In this document: positions 19,004 through 34,031 of the stretch, one piece after another
Position numbering within the stretch: position 1 is the stretch's first letter
How the letters are laid out: every line of letters begins with the position of its first letter
From: Oligoflexia bacterium
GTDB lineage: Bacteria; Bdellovibrionota; UBA1018
Reading direction: 5' to 3'
Assembly: GCA_014378465.1 (NCBI GenBank)
Contig: JACMNQ010000065.1
Location: 5,186 to 69,185 of the forward strand
DNA length: 64,000 bases
Program-made: the position numbers and the translations under genes
Notes under the pieces: generated by a model
What the model saw: the letters and a program-made list of their open reading frames with translations, nothing else
Database searches by the model: none
What the model was told of the DNA's origin: nothing

Positions 19004-19043
19004 TTCAAAGAAAGAACGCGATGGCGCGTTCAAAGAAAGAACG
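19004..19043. repeat. 15-bp direct repeat x2 (TTCAAAGAAAGAACG) spanning the OMP stop codon
   Basis: Copies at 19004-19018 and 19029-19043 separated by 10 bp. The second copy encodes the C-terminal ...TFFL* of the OMP. Confidence 0.7.
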
Positions 19044-19584
19044 TGAAGGCGAGTGGCACGACCGCGGTTCTCAGATCCGTATTGAAGTAATCGCTCGATG
19101 AGAAGCGTTCTGAGAGCGTGAGGTAAGGAGCGTATGACACTGAGTCATTCACGGCGAAGCGTTTTCCAAAAGTCAGAATGCCGCCGAAAGTGGCAGCCGA
19201 CGTCCGATTGCTCACTGCCACGAAATAAATCTGAGGGAGGAGAAAGAAGGCATTGCCAAGCCGGTCGGTGTCGGCAAAATTGAACGTGGGACCGGCTGCG
19301 AGAGTGAAGGATGTCGTCGTGTTCGACACCCCGGAAGAGCTGGACTTGACCGTACCTATCCCGAGATCGAAGTTGCCCGTCAGCTGAATGGACGGAGCGA
19401 CGAGCCGCGAATAACCCAGAGAAAAACCGAAAGCGGTATCGCCACTTTGAAAGACGAGTGAACTGCGCGAGCTGGCGTCGAGTTCATTGAGTTCGCCGAG
19501 TTCGCCGAGTTCAGCGGCACGTGCAGGGTTGCCGAACGCGAAGAGAGCAAGGAACAGGATGGTTCTCGAAGAAGTTTTCCTCAC
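19030..19584 (-). CDS. outer-membrane beta-barrel protein (small porin / OmpA-N-like)
   Basis: Signal peptide, alternating hydrophobic beta-strand pattern and C-terminal ...PLAFTFFL. The N-terminal (ELG)n segment is encoded by GAGTTCGCC repeats. Overlaps the rmuC start by 4 nt. Confidence 0.55.
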   Translation of the reverse strand: MRKTSSRTILFLALFAFGNPARAAELGELGELNELDASSRSSLVFQSGDTAFGFSLGYSRLVAPSIQLTGNFDLGIGTVKSSSSGVSNTTTSFTLAAGPTFNFADTDRLGNAFFLLPQIYFVAVSNRTSAATFGGILTFGKRFAVNDSVSYAPYLTLSERFSSSDYFNTDLRTAVVPLAFTFFL

Positions 19585-29906: not shown

Positions 29907-30296
29907 TCAAGACTTCTGAATCCCATCCCGAAACGCGGACTCAAACTTGATCCAGCTTCGTATATCCTGATCAGGCAAACCATTTTCCCGCAACACTTCC
30001 TCGAGAATTCGAAGCCGCCGATCAAAATGGCCAGCGAGAATGGGGGCAAGTTCGAGGTGCGCCTGGGCAGGAGCTTTACCGGAGTATGAGAAGCTGCCGC
30101 CCATGGCTCGCATGAGGAACTGTTTCTGCTTTTCGGCGATAACGTCGACGTCCTTCCCATCGAAGAAAAAACCGATGAGGATGTCATCACGCATGCGCGC
30201 GTAAAAAGTGTGAAGGATTTTCGAGAGACCCGTTTCTCCGCCGATTTTTTCGTAAATGGCCTTGAGCTCGGGTTTGCTGACGGAGATCTCTTTCAT
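29907..30296 (-). CDS. group I truncated hemoglobin (2/2 Hb)
   Basis: 129 aa. trHb pattern: Phe/Tyr B-helix pair (FYARMRDD) and proximal His region (...AHLELAPILAGHF). Confidence 0.6.
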   Translation of the reverse strand: MKEISVSKPELKAIYEKIGGETGLSKILHTFYARMRDDILIGFFFDGKDVDVIAEKQKQFLMRAMGGSFSYSGKAPAQAHLELAPILAGHFDRRLRILEEVLRENGLPDQDIRSWIKFESAFRDGIQKS

Positions 30297-30311
30297 TTCA
30301 TTCTTTCTGAG

Positions 30312-31202
30312 TCAGAACGCCTGGGCCTTGGCCTGAATCCAGGAGTAGAAGAATACTGCGTCGGGATCGTCCTTCAGACGTTCCAGTTCCTGTTCCATCT
30401 CGTCGACGATTTCCTGAGTGACTTTTCCCGCTTCGATCAGGCCGGCCGCGCCGCTGAGGAGGAGGTTGATCCAGTACTCAATGAACTGCGCGCGCTGCTT
30501 GGGCGCGCGGTTGTCGTAGTGGTGAATGAGATTTTTGGTCGTGATGTTCTGAAATCCCGCAGCCATCAGGTAATTGGCGAGCTTCGCACCCACGAAAGGA
30601 TCTCCTTTGAGATTCCATTGATGGTCGTTGAAAGCAAACCAGTATTGAAGTGTGGCCGGGCTGTACGGATGGACGTAGAAGGAAGAGTTGAGAACTTCGT
30701 TGCAGTAAATCGTACCGCTCGGCTTCATCACGCGGCGGATTTCGCGGAGAATTTCGATCGGCTCCTGAACGTGTTCAAGAAACCAGCAGACGAAGGCTCC
30801 GTCGAAGGCATCTTCTTCGAAGGGGAGGTGGAGCGCGTCGGCGACGTCCAGCTTCAGACGATTGGAACTGAGGTGAGAGGCGAGGTGATTGCGGGCACGC
30901 TTGACTTGAGCCTCAGAGGCATCAAGTCCGTGGATGAAAAGCTGGGGAAAGCGCTCGAGGAGAATTTCCGTCTGAGCTCCCACCCCGCAGCCGACTTCCA
31001 GGACCTGATGCTGTTGAGAGAAATCAATATGTTCGTAAACGCTTTTTTCGAGGAAACGAGCCTGCTTGTAGAGCCGGTCCTGTTCATCAGACGAATAACC
31101 GTGTAGGTAGCCCGGGGCCACTCCCGTTGCGGGTTTCGTTTTTGACGGACGGGGAGGACGTGCAGCTGGAGCCGCGTGAGCGGGCTTTTTCTTCATCGCC
31201 AT
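30312..31202 (-). CDS. class I SAM-dependent methyltransferase with Lys/Pro-rich N-terminal tail
   Basis: Motif I VLEVGCGVG and post-I acidic LD. N-terminus MAMKKKPAHAAPAARPPRPSKTKP. Begins 45 nt downstream of the histone-fold gene on the same strand. Confidence 0.75.
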   Translation of the reverse strand: MAMKKKPAHAAPAARPPRPSKTKPATGVAPGYLHGYSSDEQDRLYKQARFLEKSVYEHIDFSQQHQVLEVGCGVGAQTEILLERFPQLFIHGLDASEAQVKRARNHLASHLSSNRLKLDVADALHLPFEEDAFDGAFVCWFLEHVQEPIEILREIRRVMKPSGTIYCNEVLNSSFYVHPYSPATLQYWFAFNDHQWNLKGDPFVGAKLANYLMAAGFQNITTKNLIHHYDNRAPKQRAQFIEYWINLLLSGAAGLIEAGKVTQEIVDEMEQELERLKDDPDAVFFYSWIQAKAQAF

Positions 31203-31247
31203 CGTAACCTTTTCATGACCTCAACAGGCCGTCTGTAAAACCCGGAA

Positions 31248-31466
31248 TTACATGAAATCGCGGTCCATGACGGTCTTGCGACCTTCACGTTTCGCGTTTT
31301 CAATGGCCTGGTCACACAAAGCACGCACTTTGTCGGACAGAGCGCTGATCACGGCGCCAGAAGTGTTCATTCCAGACTTGGCACGGATGTAGTTTTTCAG
31401 CTTGGAAGCGACTACGAGAACTTCTGCGCCATCAGTACCGGTGTTTTCTTGGTTTTCGTTTTCCAT
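31248..31466 (-). CDS. bacterial histone-fold protein (Bdellovibrio HBb / DUF1931-like)
   Basis: 72 aa. LVVASKLKNYIRAKSGMNTSGAVISALSDKVRALCDQAIENAKREGRKTVMDRDF resembles the histone fold (alpha1-L1-alpha2-L2-short alpha3) including the (A)GRKT(I/V)xxxD signature of archaeal HMf-type and Bdellovibrio histones. AGGA RBS. Confidence 0.6.
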   Translation of the reverse strand: MENENQENTGTDGAEVLVVASKLKNYIRAKSGMNTSGAVISALSDKVRALCDQAIENAKREGRKTVMDRDFM

Positions 31467-31487
31467 TTGAGATTCCTTTGCTTCTTT

Positions 31488-31527
31488 GTATTTCTGGGTA
31501 TTTCTGGGTATTTCTGGGTATTTCTGA
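31488..31527. repeat. tandem 10-bp repeat x4 (GTATTTCTGG; CCAGAAATAC on the coding strand) immediately upstream of the histone-fold gene
   Basis: Three perfect copies plus a fourth with one mismatch, 22-61 nt upstream of the histone ATG, within the 85-bp spacer after the FKBP gene. Confidence 0.85.
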
Positions 31528-31551
31528 AAAATCGATGAAATTAAGGATTCC

Positions 31552-32046
31552 TTATTCGACGTTCAGGAGTTCAACGTCGAAGATCAGAGTCGCATTCGGA
31601 GGAATGACTCCGCCGGCACCTTGAGCGCCGTAACCCAGCTTCGCAGGGATGGTCAGCTTGCGCTTGCCGTGAACTTTCATTCCAGCGACGCCCTGGTCCC
31701 AGCCTGCGATGACCTGCTGAGCGCCGAGCACGAACTTGAACGGCTGGCCGCGATCCACGGAGGAGTCGAACTTTTTGCCATCAGTCAGAGTGCCCGTGTA
31801 ATGCACGGTCACGGTTTTTCCAGCGACGGCTTCTTTGCCGTCTCCCACTTTTTGGTCTTCAATTTTCAGTTCAGTCACGTCGGCAACTTTCTGGTTGGTG
31901 TTCGCGCTGGTTGAAGCCGTGGTGTTGCCACCAGCGGGAGCTTCAGCATTTTCCTTCTTGGTGCATCCAGCGGTCACAGTGAGAGCTGCGGCAATCGCGC
32001 CAACAGCCAATAACGAGTTTAAATTCTTCATGAGTTCTCTCTCCAT
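31552..32046 (-). CDS. FKBP-type peptidyl-prolyl cis-trans isomerase lipoprotein
   Basis: Signal peptide with lipobox TAGC, and an FKBP domain (TVHYTGTLTDGKKFDSS...FDVELL). Confidence 0.8.
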   Translation of the reverse strand: MERELMKNLNSLLAVGAIAAALTVTAGCTKKENAEAPAGGNTTASTSANTNQKVADVTELKIEDQKVGDGKEAVAGKTVTVHYTGTLTDGKKFDSSVDRGQPFKFVLGAQQVIAGWDQGVAGMKVHGKRKLTIPAKLGYGAQGAGGVIPPNATLIFDVELLNVE

Positions 32047-32163
32047 TTGATCTTAAAACAGCTTGGGTTAGGTCTGTAGAGTGGCATAGGTTTTTGAGAT
32101 CCGCGAGCCCAGAATGGTTTAAAAGCGTATTCAGGTTCAAGTTGTGCGTTGCGTGATTTGACG

Positions 32164-32940
32164 TCAAGCTCCAGCGCGGGGCGGCGAATTCTGCCGAAGC
32201 TTCAGGCCAAGGACCTGGGCATGATCGCGGAGAATTCGAATCACTTCGTCCGGATCATCTGTGAGAGTGAGGAGGTCGAGAGACTCCGGACCGATGGTTC
32301 CCTCACGGAGCAAAGTGTCTTTGAACCAGTCCAGGAGCCCTTTCCAGTAATCGCTGCCCATGAGGATCACCGGGAAGTCGTAAAGCTTGCCGGTCTGTAT
32401 GAGAGTCATCGCTTCCGAAAGTTCATCGATTGTTCCATAGCCTCCGGGCAGGATGATGAATGCGGATGAGTATTTCACGAGGATGACTTTGCGGACGAAG
32501 AAGTAATAGAAGGTCACGACCTGGTCGACATAAGGGTTCGAACTCTGTTCATGGGGCAGAACGATATTCACACCGATGGACTGCCCGTTGGCTTCTTTTG
32601 CTCCTCGATTTGCAGCCTCCATCAGCCCAGGGCCGCCTCCGGTCATGACTGCGAAGCCAGCGCGAGCCACTGCCGAGCCGATGGCCTGAGCTTGAGCGTA
32701 GTAGCGATGGTTTTCAGGAAAACGTGCGGAGCCGAAAATCGTCACTGCCGGCCCGAGGTCATGAAAAGCTCGGAAGCCGCGGACGAATTCCTGTCCAATC
32801 CGCAGAATCCGCATGAGCTCACGCGTACGGGAGCGTCGCGTGGCGAGAAAGAGCGCTTCTCCCTGGAGATCGCTCATTCGGCGGACACGGGCTCGAGGGC
32901 TGAAGAATTGCCTCCATTCAAGCAGGTTTAAGAGTGACAT
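32164..32940 (-). CDS. LOG family protein (cytokinin riboside 5'-monophosphate phosphoribohydrolase-like / TIGR00730)
   Basis: PGGYGTIDEL motif and a Rossmann-like fold. Start chosen at the internal MSLLNLLEW; the 95-aa N-terminal extension in the ORF track is low-complexity. Confidence 0.75.
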   Translation of the reverse strand: MSLLNLLEWRQFFSPRARVRRMSDLQGEALFLATRRSRTRELMRILRIGQEFVRGFRAFHDLGPAVTIFGSARFPENHRYYAQAQAIGSAVARAGFAVMTGGGPGLMEAANRGAKEANGQSIGVNIVLPHEQSSNPYVDQVVTFYYFFVRKVILVKYSSAFIILPGGYGTIDELSEAMTLIQTGKLYDFPVILMGSDYWKGLLDWFKDTLLREGTIGPESLDLLTLTDDPDEVIRILRDHAQVLGLKLRQNSPPRAGA

Positions 32941-33023
32941 CGTATCCCTGGTTCTAGAGGGGTTGCGTGCAGGAGTCAAACGCAGCTTGACTGGGTATCC
33001 ACTGATGTTATTCCTGAAGACCC

Positions 33024-34031
33024 ATGAAACTTCTGCCGCGCCTGACGAATACTGTTTCCATGCTCGTACTGCGTGCTGCAAGTCTCCTGAGTCTCTTGAG
33101 TCTCTTGGTGCTTCTGCTGGCGCCCAGTGCCTTCTGTTTTCAGCTGGATACGGAAGTGGCGGGGGCGGGGATCCTGAAGTGCAAAGCATACCTGCGTCTG
33201 CCTGCGGGTGCCGCAAGAGGTTCAAGTGCGCCTCGCAAGTTTCCTCTCGTGGTGGAACAGCGGGGAACCGGCATCTACTCGACTCACGATCTCGCAGGTC
33301 CCGTTCTCTACGCGCTGGTCAGGGAAGGCAAAGCCGCACTGCTCACGATCGACAAGCCCGGAATCAGTGTGCTGCTCGACGGAGAACTCCGAGTGGACCG
33401 TCAGACCTACCTGCAGCACACTCAGCGTGATCTCGTGGAATGTCTGGATCATGCCATCACCTGGGCTTCGCAGGATCTGCATGTCGGCACGGCTTCTGAC
33501 GTCTACTTCTTCGGCCACAGCGAAGGCACTCAGGTTCTTTCTCGTCTCTACCTGAAATTCCTGAACGAACGAGCCGCGATGCTCTCGCGCGTGAAAATGA
33601 TTCAGCTCAGCGGCCTGATCCTGAATTCCTGGAAGGACATCCTGGACTTTCAACTCAAGCAGGACACGACGATCCATCGTTTTGAGTTCTGGCATGCGAT
33701 GGAGACGAAGAATGACACTCGTCTGATTCAACTGGCGGAACTGGGGCACGTCTACTTTGAGGACATCTTCGCGACTGAAACCAACCTGGACACTCTGAAG
33801 GAAATCATTCGGAGAGCTCCAGGCGTTCAGTTCCAGATCTATCAGGGACTCAAGGATGAGCGGACGGAAGCGGGACCGGTTCAGGCCTTCGAAGACTTCA
33901 ATGAGAGCCAGCGAAAAAAAGGTTTCCGGCACCTGAAGATCAAAGCGCGCTATTACCAGGCGATCCATGCCCTGAGCGCGACCGCGAAAGCCGACGTCCT
34001 GTATGCTCTGTTTTCGCACTTAAGTGATTGA
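33024..34031 (+). CDS. secreted alpha/beta hydrolase
   Basis: Leu-rich signal peptide and nucleophile elbow GHSEG (GxSxG). Confidence 0.55.
   Translation: MKLLPRLTNTVSMLVLRAASLLSLLSLLVLLLAPSAFCFQLDTEVAGAGILKCKAYLRLPAGAARGSSAPRKFPLVVEQRGTGIYSTHDLAGPVLYALVREGKAALLTIDKPGISVLLDGELRVDRQTYLQHTQRDLVECLDHAITWASQDLHVGTASDVYFFGHSEGTQVLSRLYLKFLNERAAMLSRVKMIQLSGLILNSWKDILDFQLKQDTTIHRFEFWHAMETKNDTRLIQLAELGHVYFEDIFATETNLDTLKEIIRRAPGVQFQIYQGLKDERTEAGPVQAFEDFNESQRKKGFRHLKIKARYYQAIHALSATAKADVLYALFSHLSD

Follow-up and report, generated by a model that had tools for sequence, protein, structure and literature searches.

In strong bacterial promoters, phased A-tracts and UP-like elements are located 5' of the -35 hexamer, direct repeats with a centre-to-centre distance of 10 bp represent the geometry used by regulators of the OmpR/PhoB type, and unstructured A/C-rich or CA-repeat segments act as translational enhancers and ribosome standby sites. 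In H. influenzae, the adhesin genes hmw1A and hmw2A carry (ATCTTTC)n in their 5'-UTR, and the copy number of this repeat sets the protein level; hmw arrays contain at least 11 copies, with the repeats representing one arm of a long hairpin that has a G-rich partner and is cleaved by RNase III (PMC12721329). In Beggiatoaceae, Cyanobacteria and Bacteroidetes, TAACTGA repeats have been described just 5' of start codons; they recur at more than 100 loci per genome and were proposed to be single-stranded RNA sites for proteins of the S1, Csp or CsrA type (PMC4679880).

Here we analyzed a tandem array of a 10-bp unit that precedes a histone gene in a stretch of 64,000 nucleotides from an Oligoflexia bacterium (referred to as the window). 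Bacterial histones have been recognized as major chromatin proteins only recently, and to our knowledge no account exists of how their expression is determined; should a repeat tune histone dosage, it would represent the first handle on the control of bacterial histone expression. The B. bacteriovorus histone Bd0055 ranked 12th of 2,125 quantified proteins and exceeded all other proteins of the nucleoid fraction in abundance, attempts to delete its gene failed, and an abundant nucleoid-associated DNA-binding role is known only for the proteins of B. bacteriovorus and L. interrogans (PMC10627809).

The array and its genomic context

An earlier note on this DNA had described four tandem 10-bp repeats at 31488-31527, located 22-61 nt upstream of the start codon of a histone-fold gene. 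The repeats were borne out by TRF, which called an array at 31488-31526 with a period of 10, 3.9 copies and 100% matches (score 78), and the position was found to be exact, with the A of the histone ATG at 31466 and 21 nt separating the end of the array from the ATG. On the + strand the unit reads GTATTTCTGG x 3.9 with no mismatch, while on the - strand (i.e., the coding strand, which carries the flanking genes) the array can be written as CAGAAATACC x 3.9 or as CCAGAAATAC x 3 plus TCAGAAATAC. The composition of the array on the coding strand is 50% A, 30% C, 10% G and 10% T, and its GC content is 37.5%, as compared to 34% for the spacer between the FKBP and histone genes and 55.5% for the window. 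The coordinates of the array and of the features around it are listed in Table 1.

Table 1. Features of the FKBP-histone locus (coordinates of the window)
Feature	Position	Strand	Evidence
FKBP-histone spacer, 85 nt, 34% GC	31467..31551	-	ORF map, GC content, syntenic spacers in relatives
Tandem array, CAGAAATACC x 3.9, perfect	31488..31527	-	TRF, exact and 1-mismatch unit matches, alignment gap
Shine-Dalgarno (SD) sequence AAGGAA, 6 nt 5' of histone ATG	31473..31478	-	Read from sequence
8-nt direct repeat AAGGAATC, downstream copy, contains the SD	31471..31478	-	Repeat search
8-nt direct repeat AAGGAATC, upstream copy, overlaps FKBP stop codon (TAAGGAATC)	31546..31553	-	
UCCUU, anti-SD-like; predicted pairing with the histone SD, with the array in between	31543..31547	-	MFE and centroid structures
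Perfect 9-bp inverted repeat TTCGACGTT/AACGTCGAA, last FKBP codons	31555..31581	-	Repeat search, RNA fold
Bacterial histone gene (72 aa), Bd0055/HBb family, acidic N-terminal tail MENENQENTGTDG	31248..31466	-	PDB matches, homologues
FKBP-type peptidyl-prolyl isomerase gene, lipoprotein-like N-terminus, adjoins spacer upstream	31552..32046	-	Pfam FKBP_C 5.9e-39
LOG/SLOG-family gene	32164-33225	-	
SAM-dependent methyltransferase gene	30312-31202	-	
Bacterial globin gene	29907-30296	-	

The array is the only perfect one in the window with a period of 7-15 and at least 3.5 copies. Perfect arrays of this kind did not occur in five shuffled windows, and 485 kb of related loci contained no perfect array unless its period was divisible by three; the arrays with three or more copies in these loci were all imperfect, with periods that were nearly all multiples of three, as is typical of coding repeats. 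The other TRF rows >50 in the window represent repeats with two to three copies within or overlapping coding sequence, and on this basis the earlier note was correct in stating that such an array is missing from all other intergenic regions of the window. Overall, the array is real and rare for genomes of this kind. The other high-scoring tandem repeats of the window are a 25 bp x 1.9 repeat at 19004-19051, which extends across the end of ORF 19030-19584 (- strand) and its stop codon, and a perfect 15 bp x 2.8 repeat at 34491-34532 within ORF 34072-36069.

The downstream gene proved to be a histone-fold gene, as the earlier note had proposed. A phmmer search against PDB matched its product to the Bd0055 structures 8cmp (E = 6.4e-13) and 8fvx (E = 8.5e-13) over query residues 14-71, and a homologue search with the 72-aa protein returned 1385 matches, many of them labelled histone H3/H4 by JGI, which have the motif RKTVMDRD in common with the window histone. 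The score against the Pfam model CBFD_NFYB_HMF was 17.1 bits and fell under the cutoff of 21.4; the Bd0055/HBb family is known to diverge from the Pfam histone-fold model. On the strength of these similarities, the gene is a genuine homologue of Bd0055/HBb, the histone of Bdellovibrio, and, by analogy, is probably among the most highly expressed genes. Its 13-residue acidic low-complexity N-terminal tail (31428-31466, - strand) is absent from Bd0055, and tails vary in length and sequence among relatives (e.g., MENENQQTEGETTGG and MQNPNTESSAHSNASGTEEGG). An N-terminal extension of the histone through the array was rejected; the frame is open, but contains no ATG, GTG or TTG, and orthologues start at MEN... 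with an SD in place.

The closest genomes are MAGs of the Oligoflexia/Bacteriovoracaceae type. The histone protein (P0001) is assigned to "Methylotenera sp." in its NCBI record and to "Oligoflexia" in nr for the identical protein; as all relatives and the synteny point to Bdellovibrionota/Oligoflexia, the former label looks like a binning or taxonomy error.

On the - strand, the genes form a tight run in the order LOG/SLOG, FKBP, 85-nt spacer, histone, SAM methyltransferase and globin. The order FKBP, histone, (SAM methyltransferase), globin (29907-32046) is conserved in MAGs of the Bacteriovoracaceae/Oligoflexia type, i.e., in locus L081, in loci L082-L091 and in 27 of the loci L001-L080. The 353-aa ORF at 32164-33225 overlaps the + strand ORF 33024-34031, and its LOG domain begins only at approx. 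residue 160; due to both, its true start is probably located much further downstream. The overlapping + strand ORF contains, at 33081-33107, a 9-bp x 3 repeat (AGTCTCTTG) that encodes (SLL)3 in a predicted signal peptide.

Comparison with related loci and origin of the array

The comparison set consisted of 80 species-representative loci of histone relatives (L001-L080) plus 11 contigs for the two closest histone proteins, which show 87% and 85% identity. In at least 27 related loci an FKBP gene that shares its C-terminal sequence (…PNATL[VI]F[ED]VELL…) with that of the window is located just upstream of the histone gene on the same strand, and in L082-L091 an FKBP gene likewise ends upstream of the histone gene. 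Because the FKBP gene ends just upstream in so many loci, the FKBP-histone gene pair is ancestral to the clade. The spacers between the two genes range from 9 to 60 nt in the 27 syntenic loci, with one of 127 nt. Six spacers have 17 nt or less (9 nt in L022 and L027, 10 in L018, 13 in L031, 16 in L006 and 17 in L002), and in these six the SD abuts or overlaps the FKBP stop codon. More generally, AAGGA or GGAG is found at the SD position in orthologues as well.

The 10-bp array was absent from all 91 related loci (80 at the species level and 11 from the closest relatives), and thus even from relatives with 85-87% histone identity. TRF analysis of the 200 nt upstream of the 80 histone starts found only small repeats with two to three copies and nothing comparable (e.g., 12 bp x 2.1 in L020 and 12 bp x 3.1 with 80% matches in L009). 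When the ten nearest FKBP-histone junctions were aligned with MAFFT, the coding sequences on both sides matched up, while the array and its immediate flanks corresponded to a gap in all other sequences. One related species that was sampled ten times (L082-L091) showed a nearly invariant spacer of 42-43 nt without a repeat. Orthologous spacers are A-rich and, outside the SD, G-poor, as is that of the window; this is as expected of the leader of a highly translated gene.

As every related locus examined lacks the array, these comparisons indicate that it is specific to the window's own lineage and does not appear to be a conserved regulatory element of bacterial histone genes. The earlier note had given absence of the repeat from orthologous loci as the first half of what would speak against a functional element, and absence is what was found at all orthologous loci examined. 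The comparative result marks the array as a novelty of one lineage that lies outside the regulation of the family, and its value is mainly negative; the more general finding is that, in this clade, the histone gene follows the FKBP gene by 9-60 nt.

The earlier note had also placed the repeats in a 5' leader or promoter region. Spacers of 9-17 nt leave no room for a promoter, and with orthologous spacers this short the spacer in this clade is most likely part of a transcript rather than an upstream promoter region. By analogy with these loci, we infer that the histone gene is transcribed together with the FKBP gene or from within the FKBP coding region, that the 85-nt spacer is most likely an intercistronic region or a 5' leader, and that the RNA most likely includes the array. 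The proximity of the two genes across the clade points to co-transcription and to translational, and not promoter-level, control of histone abundance. As an observation in its own right, spacers of 9-17 nt suggest co-transcription of a periplasmic-type lipoprotein isomerase with the main chromatin protein. In loci of the Bdellovibrionales type (L009-L016, L060 and L079), the ORF upstream of the histone gene is Cys-rich and zinc-ribbon-like (…CSxCKK…CSVSTCN…FCSVxCFExH…); at L060:95-574 and L079:2740-3192 it continues in frame and without a stop into the histone fold, so that fusions of 159 and 150 aa, respectively, are predicted, which may correspond to a second, longer histone-fold paralogue.

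The explanation that we favor, with a probability of roughly 60%, is that the array represents a young tandem expansion, confined to one lineage and located in a transcribed spacer, that is neutral or mildly favorable for translation. An ancestral short FKBP-histone spacer would have taken up approx. 50-75 nt by insertion or duplication, after which one 10-nt unit would have been amplified, most simply by replication slippage. As the copies show no divergence, the expansion would be recent or homogenization ongoing. The spacer would be transcribed either as the FKBP-histone intercistronic region or as part of a leader that starts within or near the 3' end of the FKBP gene, and the mRNA would carry the array as a G-poor, A/C-rich, unstructured stretch just 5' of the SD. 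Any effect would most likely be passive, in that the array would lengthen an unstructured leader and distance the ribosome-binding site from the upstream UCCUU and the FKBP 3' hairpin, mildly favoring translation initiation. We infer the origin by slippage and the neutral or modest functional effect; the array is an instance of an intergenic simple sequence repeat in a leader.

The two copies of AAGGAATC are located 75 nt apart and bracket a 75-nt block that includes the array. Deletion of one copy together with the 67 nt between them would yield TAAGGAATCTCAAATG, with a 10-nt spacer and an SD that overlaps the stop codon, which is the architecture found in L018, L022, L027 and L031. A repeat of at least 8 nt occurred in 3% of shuffles of the one-copy spacer (p ~0.03) and is only modestly improbable; as 3% of shuffles match and the motif includes the SD, the insertion history that it brackets is suggestive and not proven. 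A mobile element was rejected as the source, with the flank CTTAATTTCATCGATTTTTCAG having no other copy in the window (at up to 3 mismatches) and with phage records giving no match and plasmids a single insignificant one.

Some points weigh against a neutral expansion. A non-canonical promoter may lie inside the 85-nt spacer, the occurrence of a rare array before what is probably a top-expressed gene is a coincidence that the neutral account must accept, and the exact 10-bp period together with the predicted curvature would equally fit a role at the DNA level.

Alternative readings of the array

One alternative is that the array acts as a copy-number rheostat of the contingency type, in which slippage would change the number of units between cells or strains and thereby alter histone output through the spacing of anti-SD and SD in the mRNA or through promoter geometry, with heritable and reversible variation in histone dosage. 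Perfect copies are a substrate for slippage, and a precedent exists in the 7-bp repeat of the hmw1A 5'-UTR, which sets HMW1A levels (PMC12721329). The array is nevertheless short, and four copies of a 10-mer would be expected to slip at a low rate. The identical histone was found on no other contig of the indexed assemblies, and metagenome contigs gave 0 matches when scanned, with codon degeneracy, for MENENQENTG, the N-terminus specific to the species; a second strain was thus not found. Likely essentiality in the family, as suggested by the failed Bd0055 deletions, argues against on/off switching, but not against tuning.

Structure prediction bears on this reading as well as on the favored one. 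The 144 nt from the 3' end of the FKBP gene to histone codon 10 folded with -17.8 kcal/mol, i.e., no better than shuffled sequences (z = -0.31), by which a structured leader or riboswitch was rejected; a search of 30000-33000 against Rfam gave no match with E < 1. In the MFE as well as the centroid structure the array is predicted to be unpaired, and the predicted fold pairs UCCUU, located just past the FKBP stop, with the AAGGA of the SD, leaving the array as the loop between them. In most transcript contexts that contain UCCUU, the predicted accessibility of the SD rose with copy number, with a mean unpaired probability of 0.2-0.3 for 0-2 copies, 0.3-0.7 for 4 copies and up to 0.78 for 6 copies. 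In one transcript context, however, accessibility was unchanged by copy number, transcripts that start downstream of UCCUU were predicted to have an open SD at any copy number, and shuffled 39-mers in place of the array gave unpaired probabilities of 0.33-0.57. The predicted effect thus depends on transcript boundaries and is reproduced by shuffled spacers. As shuffled 39-mers also raise SD accessibility, any benefit would be a generic length effect of an unstructured, G-poor insert and not an effect of the sequence. Taken together, we consider a rheostat unlikely.

A second alternative, that four phased AAAT tracts form a static DNA bend which would serve as an upstream activating element or as a nucleoid-protein, histone-loading or autoregulatory site, is likewise doubtful. 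In three dinucleotide wedge models, the curvature predicted for the array per helical turn was 12.5 degrees (Bolshoy-Trifonov), 15.4 degrees (AA wedge) and 17.8 degrees (De Santis), corresponding to the 98.4th, 99.85th and 100th percentile of the window, respectively, and to approx. 45-70% of a phased A6 control; in addition, the HBb/Bd0055 family bends or coats DNA (PMC11317129, PMC10627809). The A-tract-like bent DNA proposed by the earlier note hence stands as far as predicted curvature is concerned (top 0-1.6% of the window), although no promoter was found on which the bend could act. Moreover, the high score is uninformative on function, because any 10-bp tandem repeat with AAAT scores as curved, no promoter-like site overlaps the array or lies downstream of it in the 21 nt to the ATG, and relatives presumably express the histone highly without an array.

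Promoter and terminator searches covered several classes of site. A consensus scan found no sigma-70-like promoter on either strand of 30900-32400. A relaxed sigma-70 scan of the FKBP 3' half and the spacer gave one 7/12 match with an unfavorable 19-nt spacer, as compared to a window-wide background of 2.4 such matches per 294 nt, and found nothing downstream of or overlapping the array; a sigma-70 promoter in or near the array was rejected on these grounds. A conserved promoter in the 3' end of the FKBP gene was not supported, as the synonymous sites of the VEL codons (a potential TTGAAC) vary freely among relatives. No match to sigma-54 (GG-N10-GC) was found on either strand by eye. The attack-phase promoter consensus of B. 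bacteriovorus is TTAAG-N16-CCGATA (PMC3627812), and a sigma-28-like sequence, aTAAG-N15-tCGATt, immediately precedes the array at 31555-31530. The narrow pattern TAAG-N15/16-CGAT occurs only once in the window, but was chosen post hoc from the sequence; when judged fairly (8 or more of 11 positions matching, with a CGA core) the window contains 139 sites as compared to 114 +/- 10 in shuffles, with approx. 0.09 expected per spacer, and the perfect consensus occurs nowhere in the window. A sigma-28/FliA promoter was rejected as evidence given this background frequency. With no sigma-70-like site and no array in orthologues, the earlier note's proposals of a promoter or UP-type element and of a general histone-dosage device are not supported.

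No intrinsic terminator was found on either strand of 30900-32400, and none was called after the FKBP gene, where the 9-bp inverted repeat is predicted to form a stable RNA hairpin, the strongest locally, without an adjacent U-tract. This inverted repeat is made of the FDV…NVE codons at the end of the FKBP gene, and its arms, inspected by eye, are not complementary in relatives.

It is quite improbable that the array represents an operator, i.e., four head-to-tail 10-bp sites at which a direct-repeat regulator (e.g., an OmpR/PhoB winged-helix protein) would repress or activate the histone gene. Its period of exactly 10 bp falls within the head-to-tail spacing of 10-11 bp of OmpR/PhoB-type operators, and the window contains 13 matches to the CAGAAATACC unit with no more than one mismatch, as compared to 2.0 expected. 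All nine matches outside the array, however, are single and located inside coding sequence, which also led us to reject a dispersed operator; a second tandem pair of the unit was not found in the 64-kb window even with three mismatches. The lack of an intergenic copy of the unit elsewhere in the window argues against a regulon and hence against the operator array of the earlier note, no regulator gene is adjacent (the neighbors being LOG, FKBP, methyltransferase and globin genes), and the array is conserved in no orthologue.

A further point against an operator is that two adjacent units (a 20-mer) occur on 28 metagenome contigs, whose approx. 8 contexts are unrelated, have no neighboring gene in common and in no case adjoin a histone gene; similar arrays thus evidently arise independently in many genomes and would not represent one shared element. 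Degenerate arrays that have a 10-bp period and include CAGAAATACC were observed to be conserved among diverged metagenome contigs (e.g., …CAGAAATACCCAGAAATACCGAGAAATGCCCACAAATACC…), with one group formed by L092, L094, L096, L105, L106, L108-L112, L116 and L118, a second by L093, L107 and L113, and, in addition, L104, which carries a long array of CCnAAAATAC-like units. These metagenome arrays look like iteron or curved-DNA elements of replicons and have no relation to histone genes.

We regard as similarly remote a combined reading, in which a helically phased and slippage-prone module would tune histone dosage through anti-SD/SD spacing or through a bent autoregulatory site occupied by the histone itself; if true, the level of the main chromatin protein would vary heritably within a population. 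Finally, although the source is a metagenome-assembled genome and repeats are a classic cause of assembly error, a misassembly that created the array or its copy number is extremely unlikely, as the 39-bp array is shorter than typical reads and assembly k-mers, its unique flanks are perfectly syntenic with relatives and the rest of the locus is regular.

Comparison with described repeat systems

Among loci of the same gene family, the window resembles the Bd0055/HBb locus of B. bacteriovorus in that the downstream gene is a clear homologue, while it differs from loci of the Bdellovibrionales type in having an FKBP gene, in place of a zinc-ribbon gene, upstream of the histone gene. A leader repeat at the Bd0055 locus is not mentioned in the literature searched, including the main Bd0055 paper.

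Like phased A-tract DNA, the array shows 10-bp phasing of A3T tracts and a predicted curvature in the uppermost part of the window's range; unlike UP-like elements, it has no detectable promoter and ends a short distance before the ATG. The array therefore has the geometry of curved DNA and of a direct-repeat operator, and departs from both in position, recurrence and conservation. It also resembles A/C-rich translational enhancers in being G-poor, A/C-rich, predicted to be single-stranded and located directly 5' of the SD, although orthologues reach a similar composition without any repeat.

As in the case of TAACTGA repeats, which have two to six copies, a short tandem unit is placed a few nucleotides 5' of a start codon. 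Unlike those repeats, the unit of the histone array is found in the 64 kb neither as a second tandem nor in any further intergenic region.

The array shares with hmw1A a perfect tandem of a short unit, with a length that is not a multiple of three, between an upstream gene or promoter and a start codon, and, as in hmw1A (PMC12721329), the repeat would be located in the leader RNA. Conversely, it has 3.9 copies and no complementary partner, and is predicted to be unpaired. With too few copies and no pairing partner, the array lacks the defining hairpin of the hmw1A repeat, which is nevertheless its nearest functional analogue.
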